Source: a virus. From it: a stretch of DNA of 57,667 nucleotides. Position numbers and translations under genes: made by a program. Position 1 is the stretch's first letter, and each line of letters starts with the position of its first letter. Positions 7,418-54,109 of the stretch are shown here, piece by piece. The stretch is taken from IMG/VR virus record IMGVR_UViG_3300047374_000251; one strand, 5' to 3'. The notes under the pieces were generated by a model that had not been told where the DNA came from, did not search any database, and saw nothing but the letters and a program-made list of their open reading frames with translations.

Positions 7418-8119
7418 ATGGCTAACGATACTTCAGCAAGTTTAAAATTAACAGTTCAAACAACCGGTGAAAATTCTGGAACTTGGGGACAGATTACAAA
7501 CACTAATTTATTGATTCTAGAGCAAGCTATTGGTGGATCTGCTGCAGTCGGAATTACTTCAGGTGCTACTTTAACTTTTGCAGACGGTGCTTTATCAAAT
7601 GGTAAAAACCAGGTTTTAAGATTAACAGGAACTATAGCAGGAAATGTTAATGTAATAATTCCAGAAGAGAGTGGTTCAGGAACAGCTCCAAAAAAAACAT
7701 ATCTTGTAGAAAATGCTACTACAGGAGCACACACTGTAACTCTTAAAACAGCTTCTGGAACAGGTCCAACTTGGGCTACTACAGACAAAGGATATAAAAT
7801 TGTGTATTCAGATGGAACTAATGTTGTAGATATCACAGCAGATTTAGGTGATATATCTTCTGGCGCTATTAATGCTACTGGACATGTTATTCCTGGTGCT
7901 AATGATACTTACGATTTAGGTACTACAACTGCTGTTTGGAGAAACTTATACACTGGGGATTTACATTTATCAAACCAAGCTAAGAATCAAGGCAACATTG
8001 TAGATGGGACCAAAGGAAATTGGACTTTACAAGAAGGAAAAGATGATATATTCATGATAAATAATATATCTGGAGAAAAATTTAAAATTAATTTATCCAA
8101 GGTAAAAGGAGATTCATAA
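7418..8119 (+). CDS. Second tail fibre/spike-like protein
   Basis: About 75 C-terminal aa are homologous to the C-terminus of 4359-6455 (VWRNLYTGDLHLSN..VDGTKG.WT.QEG). Confidence 0.65.
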   Translation: MANDTSASLKLTVQTTGENSGTWGQITNTNLLILEQAIGGSAAVGITSGATLTFADGALSNGKNQVLRLTGTIAGNVNVIIPEESGSGTAPKKTYLVENATTGAHTVTLKTASGTGPTWATTDKGYKIVYSDGTNVVDITADLGDISSGAINATGHVIPGANDTYDLGTTTAVWRNLYTGDLHLSNQAKNQGNIVDGTKGNWTLQEGKDDIFMINNISGEKFKINLSKVKGDS

Positions 8120-9387
8120 TGGGTGTTATTTCATGTGGAACAACAATGCTCGATCAAGGAGTTTTTCAAAACATAGGAGCGGTTACTTGGGATACAACAG
8201 CTAAAACATCAAATTTTACAGGTGTTTCAGGAAATGGATATTTTGTAAATACTACAAGTGGAGCAGTTACAGTAACACTTCCAAGTTCACCTTCTGCAGG
8301 TAATATCGTAGGTATTAAAGATTACGCAAATACAGCTGACACAAACAATATTACAATTGGTAGAAACGGATCTAATATTCAAGGCACAGCTGATGATTTT
8401 AAAATTAAAGCAGAAGGAGGATCTGCCGTATTACTTTATGTAGATGGAACACAAGGATGGAAAGTAATATCTGAATCTACAGCAAGTGCTATTACTAATC
8501 AAGAATTTACAGTGGCTACCGGTGGAACCATTACAACCTCTGGAGATTTTAAAATTCATACTTTTACAGGACCAGGTACTTTTTCTGTTTCATCAGTAGG
8601 TAATGCTCCTGGTGGTGGGGATAAAGTTTCTTATGCAGTTGTTGCTGGGGGTGGTGGCTCAGGAAGAGCATGTGCTGGTGGCGGTGGAGGAGCCGGAGGT
8701 TATAGAGAAGGAAAAGATTCACCCAAAGATTCATACACAGCTTCACCAATAGTTGCACCCGCTGGACTCACAGTTTCAGCTTCACCGGGTTCTTATCCAA
8801 TTACGGTAGGCGGTGGTGGTGCAGTTCCAGGTTCCGGTGCTAGTTCTGGTTCTAATGGAAGCCCTTCAACATTTTCAAGTATAACATCAGCTGGCGGAGG
8901 ATTTGGTCATGGTCCTAGTAATGGAGGTCCAGGAGGTTCCGGTGGAGGTGGCGGAGGTCAGCCTTCTAGATCAGGAGGAACAGGTAATCAACCTCCAGTT
9001 AGTCCAGCTCAAGGAACTAATGGTGGTACAGGATTTTGGACAGGCGGTTCATTTGGTGAAAAAGGTGGCGGTGGCGGTGGAGCTACAGATGCAGGTACTT
9101 CTGCAGGACCAGGACCAGGCGGTACAGCACCTGGAGGAGACGGAGCAACAAGTTCAATTGATGGATCATCAACTACAAGAGCTGGTGGCGGTGGTGGCGG
9201 TAACGCAGGAGCTACTCCAGCAGCAAGTTCAGGTGGACCAGGTGGAGGTGGCCCTGGAGGATGTTCTAGTCCAGGTACAGCTGGAACAGCTAATACTGGT
9301 GGAGGTGGAGGTGGATCTGGTAGTAACAGTTCATCTGCTGCTGCAGGTGGTAGTGGAGTAGTTATTATAAGGTACAAATTTCAATAG
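8119..9387 (+). CDS. Glycine/proline-rich tail-associated protein
   Basis: 422 aa. An ordinary N-terminal domain is followed by long G/P/S/A-rich low complexity, ending in GGSGVVIIRYKFQ. That ending is typical of phage glycine-rich domain proteins as I recall them. Confidence 0.65.
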   Translation: MGVISCGTTMLDQGVFQNIGAVTWDTTAKTSNFTGVSGNGYFVNTTSGAVTVTLPSSPSAGNIVGIKDYANTADTNNITIGRNGSNIQGTADDFKIKAEGGSAVLLYVDGTQGWKVISESTASAITNQEFTVATGGTITTSGDFKIHTFTGPGTFSVSSVGNAPGGGDKVSYAVVAGGGGSGRACAGGGGGAGGYREGKDSPKDSYTASPIVAPAGLTVSASPGSYPITVGGGGAVPGSGASSGSNGSPSTFSSITSAGGGFGHGPSNGGPGGSGGGGGGQPSRSGGTGNQPPVSPAQGTNGGTGFWTGGSFGEKGGGGGGATDAGTSAGPGPGGTAPGGDGATSSIDGSSTTRAGGGGGGNAGATPAASSGGPGGGGPGGCSSPGTAGTANTGGGGGGSGSNSSSAAAGGSGVVIIRYKFQ

Positions 9388-9396
9388 AGGTTAATT

Positions 9397-9846
9397 ATGG
9401 CACATTTTGCAAAAATAGGAGCTAACAATAAAGTCATTAGAGTATTAACGCTTGATGACAAAGATATGAAAAATGCTGATAATGTTGGGGATGAATCAGT
9501 AGGTCAACAATATTTAGAGCTACATAATAATTGGCCGGCAGAAATGTGGGTTCAAACTTCATACAATACACATTGCAATCAACATAGTAATGGTGGAACT
9601 GCATTTAGAGGAAACTATGCAGGTATAGGTTATGAATGGGATGAAGATAATCAAATCTTTTGGCCTAAAAAACCTTACGCATCTTGGATAAAACATTTAG
9701 AATCAGCTTCTTGGAAATCACCGATCGGTGATGCTCCAGCATTAACAGCCGAACAAACTTCACAAAACGAAGCAAACACCCATATGTGGTCTTACGTTTG
9801 GAATGAAGATAATACAACTTGGGATTTGACAGACTCTAAACCATAA
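9397..9846 (+). CDS. Conserved phage protein of unknown function
   Basis: MAHFAKI..V..V.., QTSYN and FRGNYAGIGYEWDEDNQIFWPKKPYASW match a pattern I recognise from many marine phage genomes. Confidence 0.55.
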   Translation: MAHFAKIGANNKVIRVLTLDDKDMKNADNVGDESVGQQYLELHNNWPAEMWVQTSYNTHCNQHSNGGTAFRGNYAGIGYEWDEDNQIFWPKKPYASWIKHLESASWKSPIGDAPALTAEQTSQNEANTHMWSYVWNEDNTTWDLTDSKP

Positions 9847-9864: not shown

Positions 9865-10368
9865 ATGCAAAAGAAAGTATTAACAGAGCAAGCACTGTAT
9901 TATGGTGATGTCAAAATGCCTAAAGATTGGGACATTGACCGAGATAAATTATCCGACGACATTTTACAATCAGTAATTCAAAATAAAGATTTTTTATTTT
10001 CAAGAACTTGGGATATGTTGAATACATACATTAGTGAACATATTAATCTTGAATATAGTATCAATTTAATCAACAAAGAAACGTGGGGAGATATTTATAA
10101 ACCTGCGGAAACAACTATTCCATTACTCAATATTGATCCGGTAAATTTACGTAACTCTCCAGACTTTACATTATTATATGGTGTCAGAGTTAAAGATTGT
10201 ATGGTTAGAATACATTATGAAGATAACAGACGTAAAGGAAGAAGCTGGGACATACCACTGACTAATAATAAATTTATAATGTTTCCCTCAACCAATATGT
10301 ATTATTTAACCAATAATCAAAAAGATTCATTAAACTTTGTACAAACAATAACCTATGAATATATATAA
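9865..10368 (+). CDS. Hypothetical protein, possibly a degenerate double-stranded beta-helix relative
   Basis: The C-terminal FIMFPSTNMYY resembles the FPS..H strand of 2OG-FeII_Oxy_5 proteins but lacks the His. No HxD motif seen. Confidence 0.4.
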   Translation: MQKKVLTEQALYYGDVKMPKDWDIDRDKLSDDILQSVIQNKDFLFSRTWDMLNTYISEHINLEYSINLINKETWGDIYKPAETTIPLLNIDPVNLRNSPDFTLLYGVRVKDCMVRIHYEDNRRKGRSWDIPLTNNKFIMFPSTNMYYLTNNQKDSLNFVQTITYEYI

Positions 10369-10840
10369 AAATTTTTTATCTAAAAACGAATTTAAAGAAT
10401 TAGAAGATAGAGTCATGGGTGATAATATGCCTTGGTATTTTAATGATTCTGTAGTTTTAAAAAAAGATGATTATTTTCAATTAGTCTACGTTTTTGTTAA
10501 ACCTGGTGGAGAAATAAACTGTGAAGACTTTATAATGGATCTTTTAAAACCTTTTGTAAAAAAATTAAATATAAAAAAATTTTTTAAAGTAAAAGCAAAC
10601 CTTTTAACTAGAACTAATAAAATAATAGAACACGGTATGCACATAGATGACGACAGACACACCAGAGGAAAAACTGGAATTTTTTATTTAAACACTTGTG
10701 ACGGTTACACTAAATTAGAAGATGGCACAAAAATAAAAAGTGAAAAAAATAAATATGTAGAATTTGATTGTAATATTAAACATACAGGTTCGTCTTGCAC
10801 GAATCAAAAAAGGAGAGTTGTAATTAACTTAAACTATTAA
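10355..10840 (+). CDS. 2OG-Fe(II) oxygenase superfamily protein
   Basis: Motifs HIDDD, IKHTGSS and RRVVINLNY. Paralogue of 12094-12582. Confidence 0.6.
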   Translation: MNIYKNFLSKNEFKELEDRVMGDNMPWYFNDSVVLKKDDYFQLVYVFVKPGGEINCEDFIMDLLKPFVKKLNIKKFFKVKANLLTRTNKIIEHGMHIDDDRHTRGKTGIFYLNTCDGYTKLEDGTKIKSEKNKYVEFDCNIKHTGSSCTNQKRRVVINLNY

Positions 10841-11469
10841 TGAACATATCTAATTATTACTGGTATTTTACGGGTGTGCTTACACCAAAGTTTTGTGATG
10901 ATGTAATAGCTTATGCTAATCAACAAAAAGAAGTAATGGCTAGAACAGGTAGTTATGGAGATAGAAAATTAAATAAACAAGAAGTATTAGATTTAAAAAG
11001 AAAAAGAAACTCTGATCTAGTGTGGCTTAGTGATACTTGGATATATAAAGAATTACATCCATATGTACATAAAGCAAATGAAATGGCTGGTTGGAATTTT
11101 GATTGGGAAAGAAGTGAGTCTTGTCAGTTTACAAAATATAAACACAACCAATATTATGATTGGCATTGTGACAGTTGGGACAAACCTTATGAAAAAGCAG
11201 GACCTGATAATGGTAAAATTCGAAAACTATCTATGACTTGTCAATTAACAGATGGTTCAGAATATGAAGGTGGTGAATTAGAATTTGATTTTAGAAACTA
11301 TGACCCACATATGCGAGATGAATCGAAGCATAGAATACAATGCAAAGAGATATTACCAAAAGGTTCTATTATTGTATTTCCTTCTTTTGTCTGGCATAGA
11401 GTTAAACCAGTAACATCAGGTACAAGATACAGTCTTGTAGTATGGCATTTAGGGAGGCCTTTCAAATAA
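10840..11469 (+). CDS. Prolyl 4-hydroxylase-like 2OG-Fe(II) oxygenase
   Basis: Motifs WHCDS (HxD), FVWHRVKPV (distal His) and GTRYSLVVW (2OG-binding Arg), with P4H-type spacing. Confidence 0.75.
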   Translation: MNISNYYWYFTGVLTPKFCDDVIAYANQQKEVMARTGSYGDRKLNKQEVLDLKRKRNSDLVWLSDTWIYKELHPYVHKANEMAGWNFDWERSESCQFTKYKHNQYYDWHCDSWDKPYEKAGPDNGKIRKLSMTCQLTDGSEYEGGELEFDFRNYDPHMRDESKHRIQCKEILPKGSIIVFPSFVWHRVKPVTSGTRYSLVVWHLGRPFK

Positions 11470-12101
11470 TGTATATAAGTAATTATTTTAACACAACTAT
11501 TTGGTCAGAACAAAAACCAGAATTTTTAAAGTCATTAAACAAAGCATCTAATAAATATATTAAAGAAGCAAGGGACAGAAACAAAACACACATAAAAAAA
11601 CATGGTGATTTTGGATTATCACATCACTCAACACCATTAACACATGATAATGATTTCTTAGATTTTAGAAATTACATTGGTCAAAAGTCTTGGGAATATT
11701 TAGATCATCAAGGTTATGATATGCAACAATACACAACTATGTTTAGTGAGCTGTGGGTACAAGAGTTTGCTAAAAAAGGTGGTGGTCATCACTCTGCACA
11801 TATACATTGGAATCAACACGTATCAGGATTTTATTTTTTAAAGTGCAGCGATAAAACATCATACCCAATTTTTCACGAACCAAGAACTGGGGCAAGAGCT
11901 ACAAAATTAAAAATGAAACCAGATCAAAAAGGTGTATGGCCAGGTGAAGAACTTATAAACTTTAAACCTATACCAGGTACATTAATTATATTTCCAGGAT
12001 TTTTAGAACACGAATATGCAGTCGATTACGGCATAGAACCATTTAGATTTATACATTGGAATATACAAGCGATACCAAAAGAAATGGCTAAAAATGTTTA
12101 A
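11469..12101 (+). CDS. 2OG-Fe(II) oxygenase (2OG-FeII_Oxy_5-like)
   Basis: Motifs HSAHIHWNQHVSGFYFL, GTLIIFPGFLEHEY and FRFIHWN. The start was moved to the ATG at 11469 (TAATG junction with the upstream stop). Confidence 0.65.
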   Translation: MYISNYFNTTIWSEQKPEFLKSLNKASNKYIKEARDRNKTHIKKHGDFGLSHHSTPLTHDNDFLDFRNYIGQKSWEYLDHQGYDMQQYTTMFSELWVQEFAKKGGGHHSAHIHWNQHVSGFYFLKCSDKTSYPIFHEPRTGARATKLKMKPDQKGVWPGEELINFKPIPGTLIIFPGFLEHEYAVDYGIEPFRFIHWNIQAIPKEMAKNV

Positions 12102-12582
12102 GATAAAGAAAAATACTATAAGTAAAAAAAAATTAAACAATTTTATTAACAGAATATCAAATAGTTATTTTCCTTGGTATTTACAAGATGAAATAAATGA
12201 GTTTGATAAATCTGGTTATGGATATTTTACACATTCTTTATTTTTAAATAATAAAATAAATAGTTCTTTTTATGAATTAATTATGCCAGATATAATCAAA
12301 AGTCTTAATATTAAATCTTTACTTAGAGCAAGATTAAATTTGTATCCTAAAACATCTAAAACTATTAAACACGCTTATCATGTTGATTATGAATTTAAAC
12401 ATACATCTGCTGTTTATTTTATAAATACTAATAATGGGTTTTTGTTTTTTAAAAATCCGTCAAAAAAAGTTAAACCTGAAGCTAACAAATGTGTAATTTT
12501 TGATGGTGCACATTTTCACTCTAGTTCATCTTGTACTGACAAAACTAATAGAATTACTTTAAATATAAACTATGAGCTTTAA
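12094..12582 (+). CDS. 2OG-Fe(II) oxygenase superfamily protein (paralogue of 10355-10840)
   Basis: Motifs HVDYE, HFHSSSS and NRITLNINY, with the same architecture and length as 10355-10840. Confidence 0.6.
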   Translation: MFKIKKNTISKKKLNNFINRISNSYFPWYLQDEINEFDKSGYGYFTHSLFLNNKINSSFYELIMPDIIKSLNIKSLLRARLNLYPKTSKTIKHAYHVDYEFKHTSAVYFINTNNGFLFFKNPSKKVKPEANKCVIFDGAHFHSSSSCTDKTNRITLNINYEL

Positions 12583-13195
12583 AAAAAATAAATATACAGT
12601 TATTCGTAAAGCAATATCAAAAGACCTGGCGGCTTTTATTGCAAACTATTTTAGTATGCAAAAACAAGTATACGATACTTGTAGAGCACAAAGATATATT
12701 TCTCCATTCGAAAATATTATAGGTCAATATGAAGACGCTAATGAACAAATACCAAATACCTATAGTCAGTATTCTAATATTGCTATGGAAACTTTATTGT
12801 TAAAATGCCAACCTAAAATGGAAGAAGTAACAGGATTAAAGTTATACCCTGCATACACTTATGCAAGAATATATAAAAAAGGTGATGAACTTAAAAGACA
12901 CAAAGATAGGTTTAGTTGTGAAATATCTACTACTATGAATCTTGGTGGTGATCCTTGGCCAATATATTTAGAGCCATCTGGTAAGGAAGGTAAAAAAGGA
13001 ATTAAAGTAGACTTAAAACAGGGAGACATGTTAGTTTATTCTGGCTGTGAACTAGAACATTGGAGAAATAAATTTAAAGGTAAGGAATGTGTTCAAGTTT
13101 TTTTGCATTACAACAACCGTAAAACACCTGGGTCTAAAGAAAATATGTTCGATAAAAGACCACATTTAGGACTTCCATCTTGGTTTAAAAGGTAG
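12572..13195 (+). CDS. 2OG-Fe(II) oxygenase
   Basis: Motifs LKRHKDRF (HxD) and CELEHWRNKF (distal His). 207 aa. Confidence 0.65.
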   Translation: MSFKKNKYTVIRKAISKDLAAFIANYFSMQKQVYDTCRAQRYISPFENIIGQYEDANEQIPNTYSQYSNIAMETLLLKCQPKMEEVTGLKLYPAYTYARIYKKGDELKRHKDRFSCEISTTMNLGGDPWPIYLEPSGKEGKKGIKVDLKQGDMLVYSGCELEHWRNKFKGKECVQVFLHYNNRKTPGSKENMFDKRPHLGLPSWFKR

Positions 13196-13203
13196 TATAT
13201 TAT

Positions 13204-13248
13204 AAAAGAGGCAGTGGACACCACCACATACCACCCACTGTCTCTTTT
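13204..13248. terminator. Long hairpin closing the oxygenase block (AAAAGAGGCAGTGG / CCACTGTCTCTTTT)
   Basis: 14-bp stem (one G-U pair) and a 17-nt C/A-rich loop. An A-run forms the 5' arm and a T-run forms the 3' arm, so it could act in both directions. Confidence 0.5.
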
Positions 13249-13265
13249 ATAATATTTGAATAACT

Positions 13266-15191
13266 ATGTTACAGAAACTTAATTTTAAACCTGGTTTTGA
13301 TAAAATGGTAACTGAATCTGGTGCAGAATCACAATGGATAGACGGTGATTTTGTAAGATTTAGATATGGACTACCTGAAAAAATAGGGGGTTGGTCACAA
13401 CTTACTAATTCTAATAACACATTACCAGGTGTAGCAAGAGCACAACACGCGTTTGCTGCTATAAATGGTGAAAAATATGTAGCCATAGGAACGTCACAAG
13501 GTTTGTTTTTATATTATGCAGGTGAGTTTTTTGATATTTCTCCTTTAGATGATGGTATTACAGGAGCTACCTTTAATGCAACATCCGGTTCTGCTACAGT
13601 TACAGTAAATAAAACATCACATGGTTTATTAGCTGGAAGATACATAACTTTTTCATCAGTTACTGTTCCAACAGGATCCGGTTACTCACCAACTGATTTC
13701 ACAGGAAATACATTTGAAATACAAACTACAAATTTAGGGTCAAATAGTTTTGAAATTATTATGCCGTCTAACTCAGCTGGAAGTACGTCTGGAACTGGTT
13801 CAGCACAAATTGATCCATATGAAATAGTAGGTCCAACGTTTCAAACTGCTGGATTAGGTTGGGGAACATCTACTTGGGGATCAGGCACATGGGGAACTGC
13901 TAGTACAACTAGTTCTGTAATATTGGATCCAGGTTTATGGTCATTAGATAATTTTGGTCAAATACTTGTCGCAACCATTCACAACGGTAAAACATTTACA
14001 TGGAACGCAGGAGTAACAAATCCTAGAACAAACAGAGCAACTATTATGTCTGGTGCTCCTACTAAATCAAGATTAACTCAAGTATCAGATAGGGATAGAC
14101 ATGTGTTTCATTTTGGAACAGAAACAACAATCGGTAGTTCAACAACTCAAGATCCAATGTTTATTAGATTTTCTGATCAAGAAAATTTTAATGTATACCA
14201 ACCAACAGCAATTAACACTGCTGGAACATTTAGATTAGATAAGGGTAATGAGATTATTGGGGCTGTATCGGGTAAAGATTATACTTTAGTGTTAACTGAT
14301 ACATCAGCGTATGCAATTCAATATGTTGGACCACCGTTTACATTTAGTGTTAGACAAGTAGGTACAAATTGTGGATTGATTGGACAAAACGCATTAAGTT
14401 ATTCTAATGGTATTGTTTTTTGGATGTCAGGTGAAGGTGGATTTTTTATGTTTGATGGTACTGTAAAATCTATTCCTTGTGAAGTTGAAGATTTTGTATT
14501 TAGCACAACAGGAAATAATTTAGGAATTAATCAAACTTCAAGTCAATTAGTTTATGCAGAACACAATACTTTATATAATGAAATTAATTGGTTTTATGCT
14601 AAATTTGGATCTCAACAAATTGACAGATGTGTTACCTATAATTACGCAGAAAATGTTTGGACTACTTCTTCATTAGCTAGAACTAGTTATATAGATCAAG
14701 GACTTTTTGATTTGCCCTATGCAACAGAATACAATAAAACCTCTCTACCTAATTTTCCAATTCAAGGTATAACAGCAACATATGGTGCATCTACTTACTA
14801 TGAACATGAAACAGGGACCGATCAAGTAAATAGTTCCGGCACAACATCAATTGATGCGTTTATACAATCTGGAGATTTTGATATTACTAACTCTAATAAC
14901 ATTGCTAATTTACAAGGAGATGGTGAATTTACAATGTCTGTAAAAAGGTTTATACCTGATTTTCAAGTATTAACAGGTAATTCTAAAATTACTTTGTTAC
15001 TAAATAATTATCCAAACAATACAGCTACAAGCTCACCACTTGGCCCCTTTACAGTTACTTCCTCTACTGATAAAATAGACACTCGTGCAAGAGCAAGATT
15101 AGTAGCACTTAAAATAGAAAACGATGCAGTTGGAGAAACTTGGCGTTATGGTACTTTTAGATTAGATGCAAAACCAGATGGACGTAGATAA
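13266..15191 (+). CDS. Large tail protein (tail tubular B / nozzle-like)
   Basis: 641-aa ORF in the tail block. The N-terminus (FVRFRYGLPEKIGGWSQL) resembles podovirus nozzle proteins from memory only. Confidence 0.45.
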   Translation: MLQKLNFKPGFDKMVTESGAESQWIDGDFVRFRYGLPEKIGGWSQLTNSNNTLPGVARAQHAFAAINGEKYVAIGTSQGLFLYYAGEFFDISPLDDGITGATFNATSGSATVTVNKTSHGLLAGRYITFSSVTVPTGSGYSPTDFTGNTFEIQTTNLGSNSFEIIMPSNSAGSTSGTGSAQIDPYEIVGPTFQTAGLGWGTSTWGSGTWGTASTTSSVILDPGLWSLDNFGQILVATIHNGKTFTWNAGVTNPRTNRATIMSGAPTKSRLTQVSDRDRHVFHFGTETTIGSSTTQDPMFIRFSDQENFNVYQPTAINTAGTFRLDKGNEIIGAVSGKDYTLVLTDTSAYAIQYVGPPFTFSVRQVGTNCGLIGQNALSYSNGIVFWMSGEGGFFMFDGTVKSIPCEVEDFVFSTTGNNLGINQTSSQLVYAEHNTLYNEINWFYAKFGSQQIDRCVTYNYAENVWTTSSLARTSYIDQGLFDLPYATEYNKTSLPNFPIQGITATYGASTYYEHETGTDQVNSSGTTSIDAFIQSGDFDITNSNNIANLQGDGEFTMSVKRFIPDFQVLTGNSKITLLLNNYPNNTATSSPLGPFTVTSSTDKIDTRARARLVALKIENDAVGETWRYGTFRLDAKPDGRR

Positions 15192-15702: not shown

Positions 15703-15919
15703 TATTTTAAAAATAGATTGTACTACAACAGTAGTGTTGAGAAATACTAGAACAAATAAAATATATAAAGACGAAGCAGAGAAAGAAGCTGATATAGCTG
15801 ATCCTAATACTGAAACAGTTGCAGAGCATATTGCTCAAGATTTAACAGTAGAGGTATCTCCGAAAGGATTGAATGTTTTACAGAAAGTTATGAATGAAAA
15901 TAAGAAATCAAACACCTAA
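15695..15919 (+). CDS. Hypothetical protein
   Basis: 74-aa acidic ORF. Confidence 0.45.
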   Translation: MDDILKIDCTTTVVLRNTRTNKIYKDEAEKEADIADPNTETVAEHIAQDLTVEVSPKGLNVLQKVMNENKKSNT

Positions 15920-16841
15920 AGGTGGAACTGAATTACAATTAAGTTTTTTAAATAAATACGTAGATCAAAGTTTATTAGACAAAGTTCAAATTTGTACTTC
16001 AATACCAGGTAAAGTTCCATTAGATCCCAACAAAGTAAATATACTTTGGCAAAAAAATTCTTACGATCAACCAAATCTATATCCTTGGTTTAAAAATAAA
16101 GCTAATCATCATAAGTACGATTGGTATGTATTTAATTCTCATTGGAATCATGAAAAATTTAGAATGATGTTTGGTTTACCTACTGAAAAATGTATTGTTA
16201 TAAAAAATGGTGTAGATAAAATAGAACAATCAAAACCTTATGAAAAAGGACAACCTATAAAAATCATACATCAAAACACTCCTTGGAGAGGTTTATCTGT
16301 ATTACTTGGTGCAATGCAGTTAGTTAAAAACCCATTAATTACTTTAGATGTATACTCTTCTTGTGAAGTTTATGGCAAAGATTTTATGAATAAAAATGAT
16401 AAAGATTACAAAGCTCTTTACGATCAAGCAGAGTCTTTACCTAATGTAAATTATATTGGTTATAAATCTAACGAGTATATTAGAGAAAATATAAAAAATT
16501 ATAACATGTATGTTTACCCCAGTATATTTGAAGAAACTTCTTGTATATCTTTGCTTGAAGCAATGTCTGCCGGATTGTATTGCGTATTAACTAACTACGG
16601 AGCTCTTTTTGAAACAGGTGCAGAATTTCCAATGTATATTCCTTATGATAGTAACTACAAAGCTTTAGCTGAAAAATTTGCTTATGGAATAGATGCTGCG
16701 GCTGCAACACTTCATGAACAAGTAATACAAGACCATTTAACCACACAATCTTGCTATACACAGTTTTATTATTCTTGGAATAAACAAGCTGTTTCATGGA
16801 CTAATTTTTTACAGGGAGCAATCAATGCCAAAGCCAAATGA
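15894..16841 (+). CDS. Glycosyltransferase, GT-B group 1 (GT4-like)
   Basis: YVYPSIFEETSCISLLEAMSAGLYCVLTNYGALFE matches the E-x7-E region of group-1 glycosyltransferases. Confidence 0.7.
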   Translation: MKIRNQTPKGGTELQLSFLNKYVDQSLLDKVQICTSIPGKVPLDPNKVNILWQKNSYDQPNLYPWFKNKANHHKYDWYVFNSHWNHEKFRMMFGLPTEKCIVIKNGVDKIEQSKPYEKGQPIKIIHQNTPWRGLSVLLGAMQLVKNPLITLDVYSSCEVYGKDFMNKNDKDYKALYDQAESLPNVNYIGYKSNEYIRENIKNYNMYVYPSIFEETSCISLLEAMSAGLYCVLTNYGALFETGAEFPMYIPYDSNYKALAEKFAYGIDAAAATLHEQVIQDHLTTQSCYTQFYYSWNKQAVSWTNFLQGAINAKAK

Positions 16842-17757
16842 ACCTATATGGTTTAACCAGGACAAAACAGTAACTCCAAATGGAGATACTTACCAAACAA
16901 TTAAAACTAACAGAATAGAAAATAACGTAACCGAAATAAATATAGGAGAACAATCACCATATAAAATAATGGTGTGCACTCCTTGTCATAGTGACGTTAG
17001 CATGCATTACGTACAAGCTGTATTAAAATTTCAACAAGCATGTTGGGCTAAAAAAATACAATGTAGCTTTACATTGTTAAAATCATCTTTGGTTACTCAA
17101 GGTAGAAATCTATGTGTTGCAGAAATGTTAAATCATCAAGATAATTATACTCATTTATTGTTTATTGATTCTGATATTGATTTTAATGCTGAAACTATTT
17201 TTAAGATGTTAGATTTTGACAAAGATATAATTAGTGTTCCTTATCCTATGAAAATATTGAGTTGGGATAAAATGTGGAGAAGACTTAATTTAAAAGAAAA
17301 TGCAGTCACTGATGCTGATGATTTAGCTAAAGCAGGTTTTACTTTTCCAGTCAAAGTAGAGGACCCCAATTCAGTAATTGTGGACCGAGGACTTATGGAA
17401 TTAACCCATGCTCCTACTGGGTGTATGTTAATTAAAAGAGAAGTTCTTGAAAAGATGATTAAAGAATATCCTCATTTAGAAATATTCCAACCTACTAATA
17501 TCAATGGTAAAGAAGAGAAAAAAGAAAATATGTATAATCTATTTGATACTTTACACGACCCAGTTACTAAAAGGTACTTCGGTGAAGACTTTGGATTTTG
17601 TCAACGATGGGCAGATATAGGGGGTAAGGTATATGCCTATATAAATGATTACATAACTCATGTAGGAGAATACTCTTATTGTGGTCGTTTTAGAGATGAT
17701 TTAGAACAAGCAACTAAGCCCCTCAAAGCAGTTGACGAGTCTAAAAAAATCAAATAA
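16825..17757 (+). CDS. Glycosyltransferase, GT-A (family 2-like)
   Basis: IMVCTPCHSDV.. N-terminal Rossmann-like start and a LLFIDSDIDF (DxD) motif. Confidence 0.55.
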   Translation: MPKPNEPIWFNQDKTVTPNGDTYQTIKTNRIENNVTEINIGEQSPYKIMVCTPCHSDVSMHYVQAVLKFQQACWAKKIQCSFTLLKSSLVTQGRNLCVAEMLNHQDNYTHLLFIDSDIDFNAETIFKMLDFDKDIISVPYPMKILSWDKMWRRLNLKENAVTDADDLAKAGFTFPVKVEDPNSVIVDRGLMELTHAPTGCMLIKREVLEKMIKEYPHLEIFQPTNINGKEEKKENMYNLFDTLHDPVTKRYFGEDFGFCQRWADIGGKVYAYINDYITHVGEYSYCGRFRDDLEQATKPLKAVDESKKIK

Positions 17758-53868: not shown

Positions 53869-54109
53869 AATAAACTTAATAACTAAAATACAAAAACAAT
53901 TAAAAGAAAACTATCAACAAATTGCAAATGCAATGGTAAGTGGTGGTGTTGACAATATGGAAAAATACAAGTACATGTTGGGACAGGCCCACGCCTACCA
54001 ATATATTTCAGGGGAAATATCCAACCTGCTAAACAAAGGAGCCACGAATGGAAAAGACAGAGACGGCAAAGTCGTCGACATTGGAAAAGACAGAAGTCCC
54101 AAAGCATAA
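53861..54109 (+). CDS. Hypothetical protein
   Basis: 82-aa ORF. Confidence 0.45.
   Translation: MDEINLITKIQKQLKENYQQIANAMVSGGVDNMEKYKYMLGQAHAYQYISGEISNLLNKGATNGKDRDGKVVDIGKDRSPKA

Follow-up and report, generated by a model that had tools for sequence, protein, structure and literature searches.

Why should a phage carry up to five 2-oxoglutarate (2OG)- and Fe(II)-dependent oxygenases in tandem among the genes for its tail, and on what would they act? The question is raised by IMG/VR virus record IMGVR_UViG_3300047374_000251, a stretch of 57,667 nucleotides (the window), in which six back-to-back open reading frames (ORFs) occupy positions 9865–13195 of the + strand, as confirmed from the ORF listing of the window. 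A first-pass annotation, made from the letters alone, had read five of these ORFs as oxygenases and their arrangement as an unexplained novelty. In the interpretation that is tentatively preferred here, the array would be a translationally coupled, late oxygenase island of an HTVC023P-type podovirus, built on a core of two genes (H and F) and serving the hydroxylation of protein side chains. The region is 81–82% nucleotide-identical to phage 023Pt_psg01 and to Pelagibacter phage HTVC023P and, to judge from this identity, its source is an HTVC023P-type Pelagibacter podovirus, a phage that infects SAR11. The features of the cassette, with the short names used below, are as follows.

A, 9397..9846, + strand: small conserved protein of phrog_7759; head of the cassette, not an oxygenase
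P, 9865..10368, + strand: 167 amino acids (aa); ligand-less, possibly degenerate oxygenase relative (pseudo-enzyme candidate)
V1, 10355..10840, + strand: 161 aa; predicted small 2OG/Fe(II) oxygenase of phrog_274; variable insertion
H, 10840..11469, + strand: 209 aa; predicted 2OG/Fe(II) hydroxylase of prolyl 4-hydroxylase (P4H)/PKHD type; core gene
'5', 11469..12101, + strand: 210 aa; predicted oxygenase, 2OG-FeII_Oxy_5/TIGR02466-like
V2, 12094..12582, + strand: 162 aa; second predicted phrog_274 oxygenase, paralogue of V1; variable insertion
F, 12572..13195, + strand: 207 aa; phrog_2954, with the database label 'ferrochelatase'; core gene
Stem-loop, 13197..13255, + strand: closes the cassette, 10 nt before the ATG of the next gene

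Successive ORFs in the order P-V1-H-5-V2-F overlap by 14, 1, 1, 8 and 11 nt, much as first described (genes overlapping or abutting by 1–14 nt). The fourth ORF, '5', is also open from an upstream ATG at 11442; the start at 11469 is that of the HTVC023P gp65/gp66 junction. All of the facial-triad motifs that had been quoted for five ORFs were found in the translations, with their ligands conserved in the respective families. The suggestion of at least three subfamilies also stands, as the members can be sorted into a P4H/PKHD-like enzyme, an Oxy_5/TIGR02466-like enzyme, the phrog_274 pair and the unannotated F family. The array lies, as proposed, inside the tail module, flanked by fibre-like genes and by a gene of the phrog_3287 virion protein family.

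The members of the cassette

H and '5' are the only two of the six ORFs that reach a curated Pfam cut-off. H had been called prolyl-4-hydroxylase-like, a call borne out by its match to 2OG-FeII_Oxy_3 (E = 3.9e-16; 60.2 bits vs a cut-off of 27) and by its nearest solved relatives in the PDB, PiuC and Sbal_3634 (both hydroxylases of PKHD type; E = 2e-4). With the PKHD-type/prolyl-4-hydroxylase-like enzymes as a group (PiuC, YbiX, Sbal_3634; PDB 9ghl, 9qn0-4, 3dkq) it shares the Oxy_3 domain, with the HxD...H...R residues in register, but the match to their PDB sequences reaches only 24 bits, as fits a distant relative and no orthologue. Likewise, H scores 27.6–57.3 bits against the YbiX/PiuC equivalogs of NCBIfam (PRK05467.1-1 to -4), below their cut-offs of 143–399, and by these scores it is related to the equivalogs and not a member of them. 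Substrates of PiuC and YbiX were not found in the literature searched. After de-replication of the family at 80% identity, as was also done for '5', V1 and V2, residues H109, D111, H186 and R196 of H are invariant. The '5' protein passes the cut-off of the Oxy_5 family to which it had been likened (PF13759, 2OG-FeII_Oxy_5; E = 1.9e-11, 44.7 bits vs 27), belongs to phrog_81 (E = 1.8e-19) and has H120, H122, H190 and R202 as invariant residues; with 51 bits against a cut-off of 62.5 it falls outside TIGR02466.

The other core gene, F, gives an excellent match to phrog_2954 (E = 6.5e-54) and has homologues in 156 phage records, where it is mostly labelled 'ferrochelatase'. This label originates from the entry 'Hyp. 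with ferrochetalase domain' for T4-GC 615 in Sullivan et al. 2010 (PMC3037559). The ferrochelatase family itself (HemH, PF00762) is matched neither by F, at E <= 1, nor by 25 + 42 diverse family members, scanned at E <= 0.1 or 0.01. F has no Pfam family of its own, no PDB match was obtained for it by sequence or by profile, and over 7,000 database clusters of its family carry no Pfam domain and have 'hypothetical protein' as their sole name. What points to an oxygenase is, first, the pattern of conservation: H110, D112, R113, H163 and R165 do not vary across 291 sequences, including high-G+C bacterial homologues. In V1, H and '5' the invariant Arg (R154, R196 and R202) stands some 10 residues past the distal His, the spacing expected of the 2OG-binding residue, whereas in F the invariant R165 comes two residues after H163 and the +10 site has no conserved basic residue. 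As for Pfam, diverse F members share one recurring signal, 2OG-FeII_Oxy_2, sub-threshold and in three relatives (E = 1.5e-3 in gp197 of cyanophage ACG-2014f; of 42 other members, 2 gave it, at best with E = 3.5e-3). The F profile aligns nearly end to end with the H family, although weakly (hhalign E = 5e-3, probability 7%), and in this alignment the N-terminal strand-helix, the HxD, the next 'S-T-x-x-L' strand and the distal histidine coincide; against V2 (hhalign E = 3e-4, probability 39%) both metal motifs are aligned. An AlphaFold2 (AF2) model of F, made from a shallow alignment (sequences 81–96% identical), has a mean confidence score (pLDDT) of 40, and a Foldseek search with it gave noise. 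By its sequence features F is quite probably an Fe(II)/2OG oxygenase of the double-stranded beta-helix (DSBH) fold; the earlier oxygenase call for this ORF was firmer than its grounds, which are the invariant HxD...H-x-R, the weak in-register alignments and the sub-threshold Oxy_2 signal in relatives, F itself having no Pfam match.

A natural fusion links the two core genes. Protein gp197 of cyanophage ACG-2014f (362 aa) resembles F in its N-terminal half and carries an Oxy_3 domain (E = 4.5e-17) at its C-terminus, and such a union of F with a P4H-like domain supports the view that H and F work together. The family phrog_3531, which matches both F and H, was rejected as evidence of homology between the two since it is a two-domain family (F at positions 39–177, H at 187–361); it was taken instead as evidence of F+H fusion once the 362-aa ORF had been confirmed. 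In unrestricted iterative hidden Markov model (HMM) searches all oxygenase families merged. This merger was not taken to prove homology, since the two families could be linked artificially through F+H fusion proteins, and clean, length-filtered families were rebuilt in place of the merged ones.

The F family is not specific to phages. It occurs on bacterial chromosomes of Acidobacteriota and Proteobacteria, both as H-F pairs and as lone F genes; the pairs were seen in Acidobacteriota, and a lone F lies among housekeeping genes in an alphaproteobacterial metagenome-assembled genome. F also forms the N-terminal domain of bacterial ORFs of 583–594 aa, their length being counted from the first in-frame start. 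Two members of the family carry a SEC-C motif, and none of the members has a recorded Pfam domain.

V1 and V2 are small proteins which match phrog_274 (E = 1.6e-44 and 1.5e-37, respectively), cross-match the PHROG 2OG-oxygenase families 61 and 81, and match Pfam Oxy_3 below its cut-off (E = 1.1e-3 for V1 and 9.5e-4 for V2, ~20 bits each). That they are clear paralogues, as had been noted, is evident from 31% identity over 162 aa (E = 6e-20) and an hhalign probability of 100%. H96, D98, H143 and R154 are invariant in the V1 family; in that of V2, H96, D98 and H142 are invariant and R153 is conserved at >= 80%. V2 also gives a weak full-length match to a FlmC-family 2OG oxygenase (E = 0.033). 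The label 'DNA endonuclease V' attached to phrog_274, which refers to the pyrimidine-dimer glycosylase of T4, finds no support, as Pfam at E <= 1 gives only Oxy_3 and Oxy_5 for the two proteins. Their G+C contents (0.249 for V1 and 0.215 for V2, with neighbours at ~0.31) are the lowest in the region, which is consistent with recent or mobile insertions. The retention of the ligand sets across diverged homologues in V1, V2, H, '5' and F indicates purifying selection on catalysis.

P differs from all of these. It has no match in Pfam, PHROG, NCBIfam or the PDB, even through a 58-sequence profile reaching 24% identity, diverse members of its family gave only scattered chance matches to Pfam and NCBIfam, and no conserved His, Asp or Arg stands at the expected ligand sites among 284 representative relatives. 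The residues that the family does conserve are S98, D100, L104-Y105-G106, F140-P141, N150 and N157. Its C-terminal 37–39 residues align to phrog_274 (hhalign E from 8.5e-4 to 7e-3, probability 6–24%), with Tyr146 at the site of the distal His and Asn157 at that of the 2OG-binding Arg. The AF2 model of P, from an equally shallow alignment (81–96% identity), has a mean pLDDT of 45. A degenerate oxygenase relative is plausible on this alignment; of the original description, the absence of metal ligands is confirmed, and the relatedness hangs on the 37–39-residue C-terminal match. If P is homologous, it could not bind iron in the usual way. From these sequence comparisons, the oxygenase assignment appears solid for four genes (V1, V2, H and '5'), probable for F and uncertain for P.

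Gene order in relatives and earlier descriptions

The gene order of the block was counted in 53 HTVC023P-type contigs of IMG/VR that hold it complete.

A-P-H-5-F: 39 of 53 contigs
A-P-H-5-V-F: 9 of 53 contigs
A-P-H-F: 3 of 53 contigs
A-P-V-H-F: 1 of 53 contigs
A-P-V-H-5-V-F, the form of the window itself: 1 of 53 contigs

A V gene is thus found at the V1 position in 2 of the 53 arrays and at the V2 position in 10, and the counts indicate a conserved A-P-H-5-F core into which V1 and V2, both of low G+C, are variably inserted. The window is a rare maximal form of the array, with two extra phrog_274 copies. In a further 80 viral contigs that are more diverged, H precedes F by no more than four genes in 55 of the 66 that are informative; typical orders there are H-F, H-5-F and H-V-F, and the flanks are again fibre-like genes (phrog_2295 and 863) and a phrog_3287 virion protein of 620–740 aa.

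The arrangement is not the novelty that the first-pass annotation took it for. HTVC023P (gp63–gp67) and 023Pt_psg01 have the same genes in the same order with the same fibre-like flanks, their annotations already show the cluster (as gp64–67 in HTVC023P), and it has been discussed by Wittmers et al. 2022 (PMC9599517), who described eight non-orthologous 2OG-Fe(II) auxiliary metabolic genes (AMGs) in HTVC023P-type phages, co-located with one or two 'ferrochelatases', an oxygenase being always adjacent, and deemed a phylogeny not feasible. Compared with the cluster described there, the window adds the two phrog_274 insertions (P-V-H-5-V-F). That study takes the ferrochelatase label as given and builds an iron/haem rationale on it, whereas the label finds no support here and F looks like an HxD...H oxygenase. 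HTVC033P, too, has H-5-F beside a tail fibre gene.

Comparable or longer arrays are also carried by marine T4-like myoviruses, which differ from the phage of the window in virion type and genome size. In HTVC008M (gp068–gp072), four oxygenases and F, the latter at the 3' end, are flanked by neck and baseplate genes; the F protein of the window is 45% identical to gp068. In Mosig (Mosig_00055–00060), six genes stand in a row after a tail fibre gene, F being the second. The longest is the run of about ten genes in Syn9 (gp45–gp54), with F at the 3' end and with JmjC_2 and DUF6445 members added. The subfamilies of the window (H, '5', V and F) recur in Syn9, HTVC008M and Mosig, there too as overlapping genes in tandem, and the pelagimyophage arrays adjoin tail-fibre, neck or baseplate genes. 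Unlike in the window, the oxygenase genes of some cyanophages are dispersed or stand amid replication genes. In the Syn9 record (NC_008296) the run comprises some ten cupin/DSBH genes, with gp49 as the JmjC_2 domain protein; gp52, a 'minor coat protein' in RefSeq, is a DUF6445 protein with weak Oxy_3, and several RefSeq names in the block look unreliable. Cyanophage S-SCSM1 has 24 such genes, whose functions 'have not been specifically investigated' (PMC9602691). The array is therefore a known feature; the window holds one more (maximal) instance of a cluster that had been described before from its own phage group and from marine myoviruses, but to which no function has been assigned.

Surroundings of the cassette and its 3' stem-loop

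The block has a G+C content of 0.215–0.32, below that of its flanks (0.36–0.41), and promoter-like sites between 7000 and 16000 are not in excess (40 vs 40.6 expected from shuffles). Upstream, the genes at 7418 and 8119 match PHROG tail-fibre families. The product of the latter (8119–9387) has a long Gly/Ser/Pro-rich C-terminal region with a match to Pfam Gly_rich_2 (E = 8e-13), and this region gives rise to spurious long ORFs in other frames or on the other strand (8903–9361 on the + strand and 9009–9377 on the - strand). Between the fibre-like genes and P lies the head gene, A (phrog_7759, E = 4e-31), which has no match in Pfam, NCBIfam or the PDB. It is upstream in 53 of 53 complete HTVC023P-type arrays, its presence having been required for that count, and adjoins F or the oxygenase array in HTVC008M, S-SSM5, S-TIM4, S-CAM8 and MS29. 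Proteins of its family begin with MAHFA and have several invariant Trp and Pro residues; the gene also occurs alone in small podoviruses, e.g. Greip and HTVC025P. A could be a partner or a substrate of the oxygenases.

Downstream, the gene at 13266–15191 belongs to phrog_3287 ('virion structural protein'). Its 641-aa product matches chain Y of PDB 9nwi (E = 6e-11), which is present in six copies and was deposited as 'Capsid and scaffold protein'; at the level of sequence, this match is compatible with the earlier guess of a 'nozzle-like' gene. Farther on in the structural module, 2.7 kb downstream of the cassette, a glycosyltransferase of family GT4 (Pfam Glycos_transf_1, E = 2.8e-13) overlaps a phrog_1574 ORF (15894–17757 for the two). 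A GT4 homologue recurs downstream of F and a 13266-like gene in 12 loci, eight of them with the partner ORF, and these loci include some in which F is only 32–52% identical.

The hairpin that closes the cassette is real and larger than first described (14 bp at 13204–13248). It has a 21-bp stem (13197–13217 paired with 13235–13255) and a 17-nt loop, with a folding energy (dG) of -27.6 kcal/mol and z = -6.7. Hairpins of <= -20 kcal/mol directly follow F in 67 of 76 related contigs, and in an RNAalifold analysis of 42 distinct sequences 16 of 18 pairs showed compensatory changes. The 14-nt loop motif CACCACCACATACC is near-invariant across HTVC023P-type contigs, and about 10 nt separate the stem-loop from the next ATG, irrespective of which gene comes next. 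No Rfam family was found for it. The other match to the loop motif in the window, at 53935, was considered as a second copy and dismissed, as it lies in coding sequence and does not fold; the hairpin is unique. Its U-rich run (CUCUUUUAUAAUAU) constitutes the 3' arm of the stem and does not follow the stem, so that the structure is no textbook intrinsic terminator, and a scan for the consensus of such terminators made no + strand call at this site. The stem-loop may serve as a terminator or in the processing of RNA.

Possible functions of the cassette

In the preferred interpretation, the cassette would be expressed as one co-directional, translationally coupled unit of the late tail/structural module and would provide five Fe(II)/2OG oxygenases of four subfamilies (H; '5'; V1 and V2; F) in addition to the ligand-less P. 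As in the superfamily at large, each active enzyme would hold Fe(II) on an HxD/H...H triad and 2OG through the conserved Arg, and would convert 2OG and O2 to succinate and CO2, the resulting Fe(IV)=O species then hydroxylating a C-H bond of its own substrate. H and F are the conserved core and would probably act together, with the other oxygenases as interchangeable additions. The targets might be phage fibre or tail proteins encoded in the same operon, or else proteins of the host. A protein substrate is suggested by the prolyl-hydroxylase-type enzymes that are the nearest characterised relatives of H, by the JmjC_2 domain of the ribosomal-oxygenase type in the Syn9 array, and by the GT4 glycosyltransferase which recurs downstream in the same module. 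Late expression may be presumed from the genomic context and from gp73 of the related phage HTVC027P, a 2OG oxygenase that falls into the 'Late' class (Table S3 of PMC12753301).

Protein-hydroxylating 2OG oxygenases are encoded by giant viruses of eukaryotes. The prolyl 4-hydroxylase of Paramecium bursaria Chlorella virus-1 and the lysyl hydroxylase/glycosyltransferase L230 of mimivirus are 2OG oxygenases that act on Pro-/Lys-rich structural proteins; in L230, hydroxylation is coupled to glycosylation. Both enzymes have demonstrated substrates and can serve as a model for the phage cassette by analogy. On this model the cassette, possibly together with GT4, might form a virion-maturation pathway, in which a hetero-complex of the P4H-like protein and F, with the accessory oxygenases, hydroxylates the Gly-/Pro-rich fibre or tail proteins or A, perhaps followed by glycosylation. 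So specific a pathway is distinctly unlikely, but if it exists it would be, as far as the literature searched goes, the first bacteriophage-encoded system hydroxylating structural proteins.

Several observations weigh against the hydroxylation of proteins by a late, H- and F-based island. HTVC027P gp73 is at most a putative orthologue of a gene of the array, and the literature searched (to 2022) gives no function or substrate for the phage oxygenases. Since tail-fibre regions serve generally as hot spots of accessory genes, the position of the cassette may reflect tolerance of insertions and not function. The F gene of P-SSM7 lies among replication genes, and the single chromosomal F genes among bacterial housekeeping genes argue against a virion-specific target of F. 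Finally, the fold of F is not supported by the AF2 model with its pLDDT of 40, and the profile-profile probabilities for F are only 7–39%.

Among the alternatives, a role as metabolic AMGs is judged unlikely, but less so than the others. Here the oxygenases would take small molecules as substrates or do no more than burn 2OG to succinate, thereby re-tuning the carbon/nitrogen status and the energy supply of the host. Modulation of 2OG has been proposed for homologous cyanophage genes (Sullivan et al. 2010, PMC3037559; later PMC9602691), HTVC027P infection up-regulates host iron uptake (PMC12753301), bacterial F homologues stand beside genes for pirin, a flavodoxin-like reductase and adenylosuccinate lyase, and Oxy_5/TIGR02466 and phrog_274 are without a characterised protein substrate. 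Uncoupled turnover of 2OG is, however, a poor fit to several subfamilies which each conserve non-catalytic residues of their own. The rationale of 2OG sensing through NtcA was, moreover, framed for cyanobacteria and not for SAR11, and the genes lie in a presumably late structural operon and not with the early or middle metabolic genes.

Nor does the cassette, placed as it is in the tail module, stand with the replication or modification genes, which counts against oxygenases acting on nucleic acids, through AlkB-like repair or base modification of phage or host DNA or RNA. For the Syn9 genes, a part in DNA repair had been suggested early on (as cited in PMC3037559), and HTVC023P-type phages do carry DNA hypermodification genes (PMC9599517). 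The sole Pfam signal of the F domain is from an AlkB-type family, the sub-threshold 2OG-FeII_Oxy_2, but the matches of H, '5' and V are to Oxy_3 and Oxy_5 and not to Oxy_2, no member reaches the AlkB or Tet_JBP thresholds, and the endonuclease V label is unsupported in the Pfam scan; the probability of such a role seems slight. Slighter still is that of a tailoring of surface glycans, in which the oxygenases and the nearby glycosyltransferase would modify virion glycans or the host envelope, much as the flagellin-modification (Flm) genes do. The FlmC match of V2, the recurrence of GT4 (12 related loci) and its partner ORF (eight) downstream of the cassette, a glycosyltransferase-like gene adjoining an H-F pair in one Acidobacteriota genome and a P-SSM2 oxygenase that abuts a family-2 glycosyltransferase are all in line with it. 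The FlmC match nevertheless amounts to 14 bits against a cut-off of 240, the 641-aa structural gene and small ORFs separate the glycosyltransferase from the cassette, and many cassette-bearing loci lack the glycosyltransferase altogether.

Few accessory genes are commoner in marine cyanophages than the homologous oxygenase genes, of which one genome can hold as many as 24 (PMC9602691). The analysis reveals no new system, but it sharpens an existing problem. The labels 'ferrochelatase' and 'endonuclease V' have shaped published interpretations and yet lack support, and to what had been described are added a P4H-like and F core with a natural fusion, one apparently catalytically dead member and a conserved, structured 3' end. 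While they do not themselves reveal what role the enzymes play, the corrected labels, the H-F core, the dead member and the 3' stem-loop are concrete targets for biochemistry.

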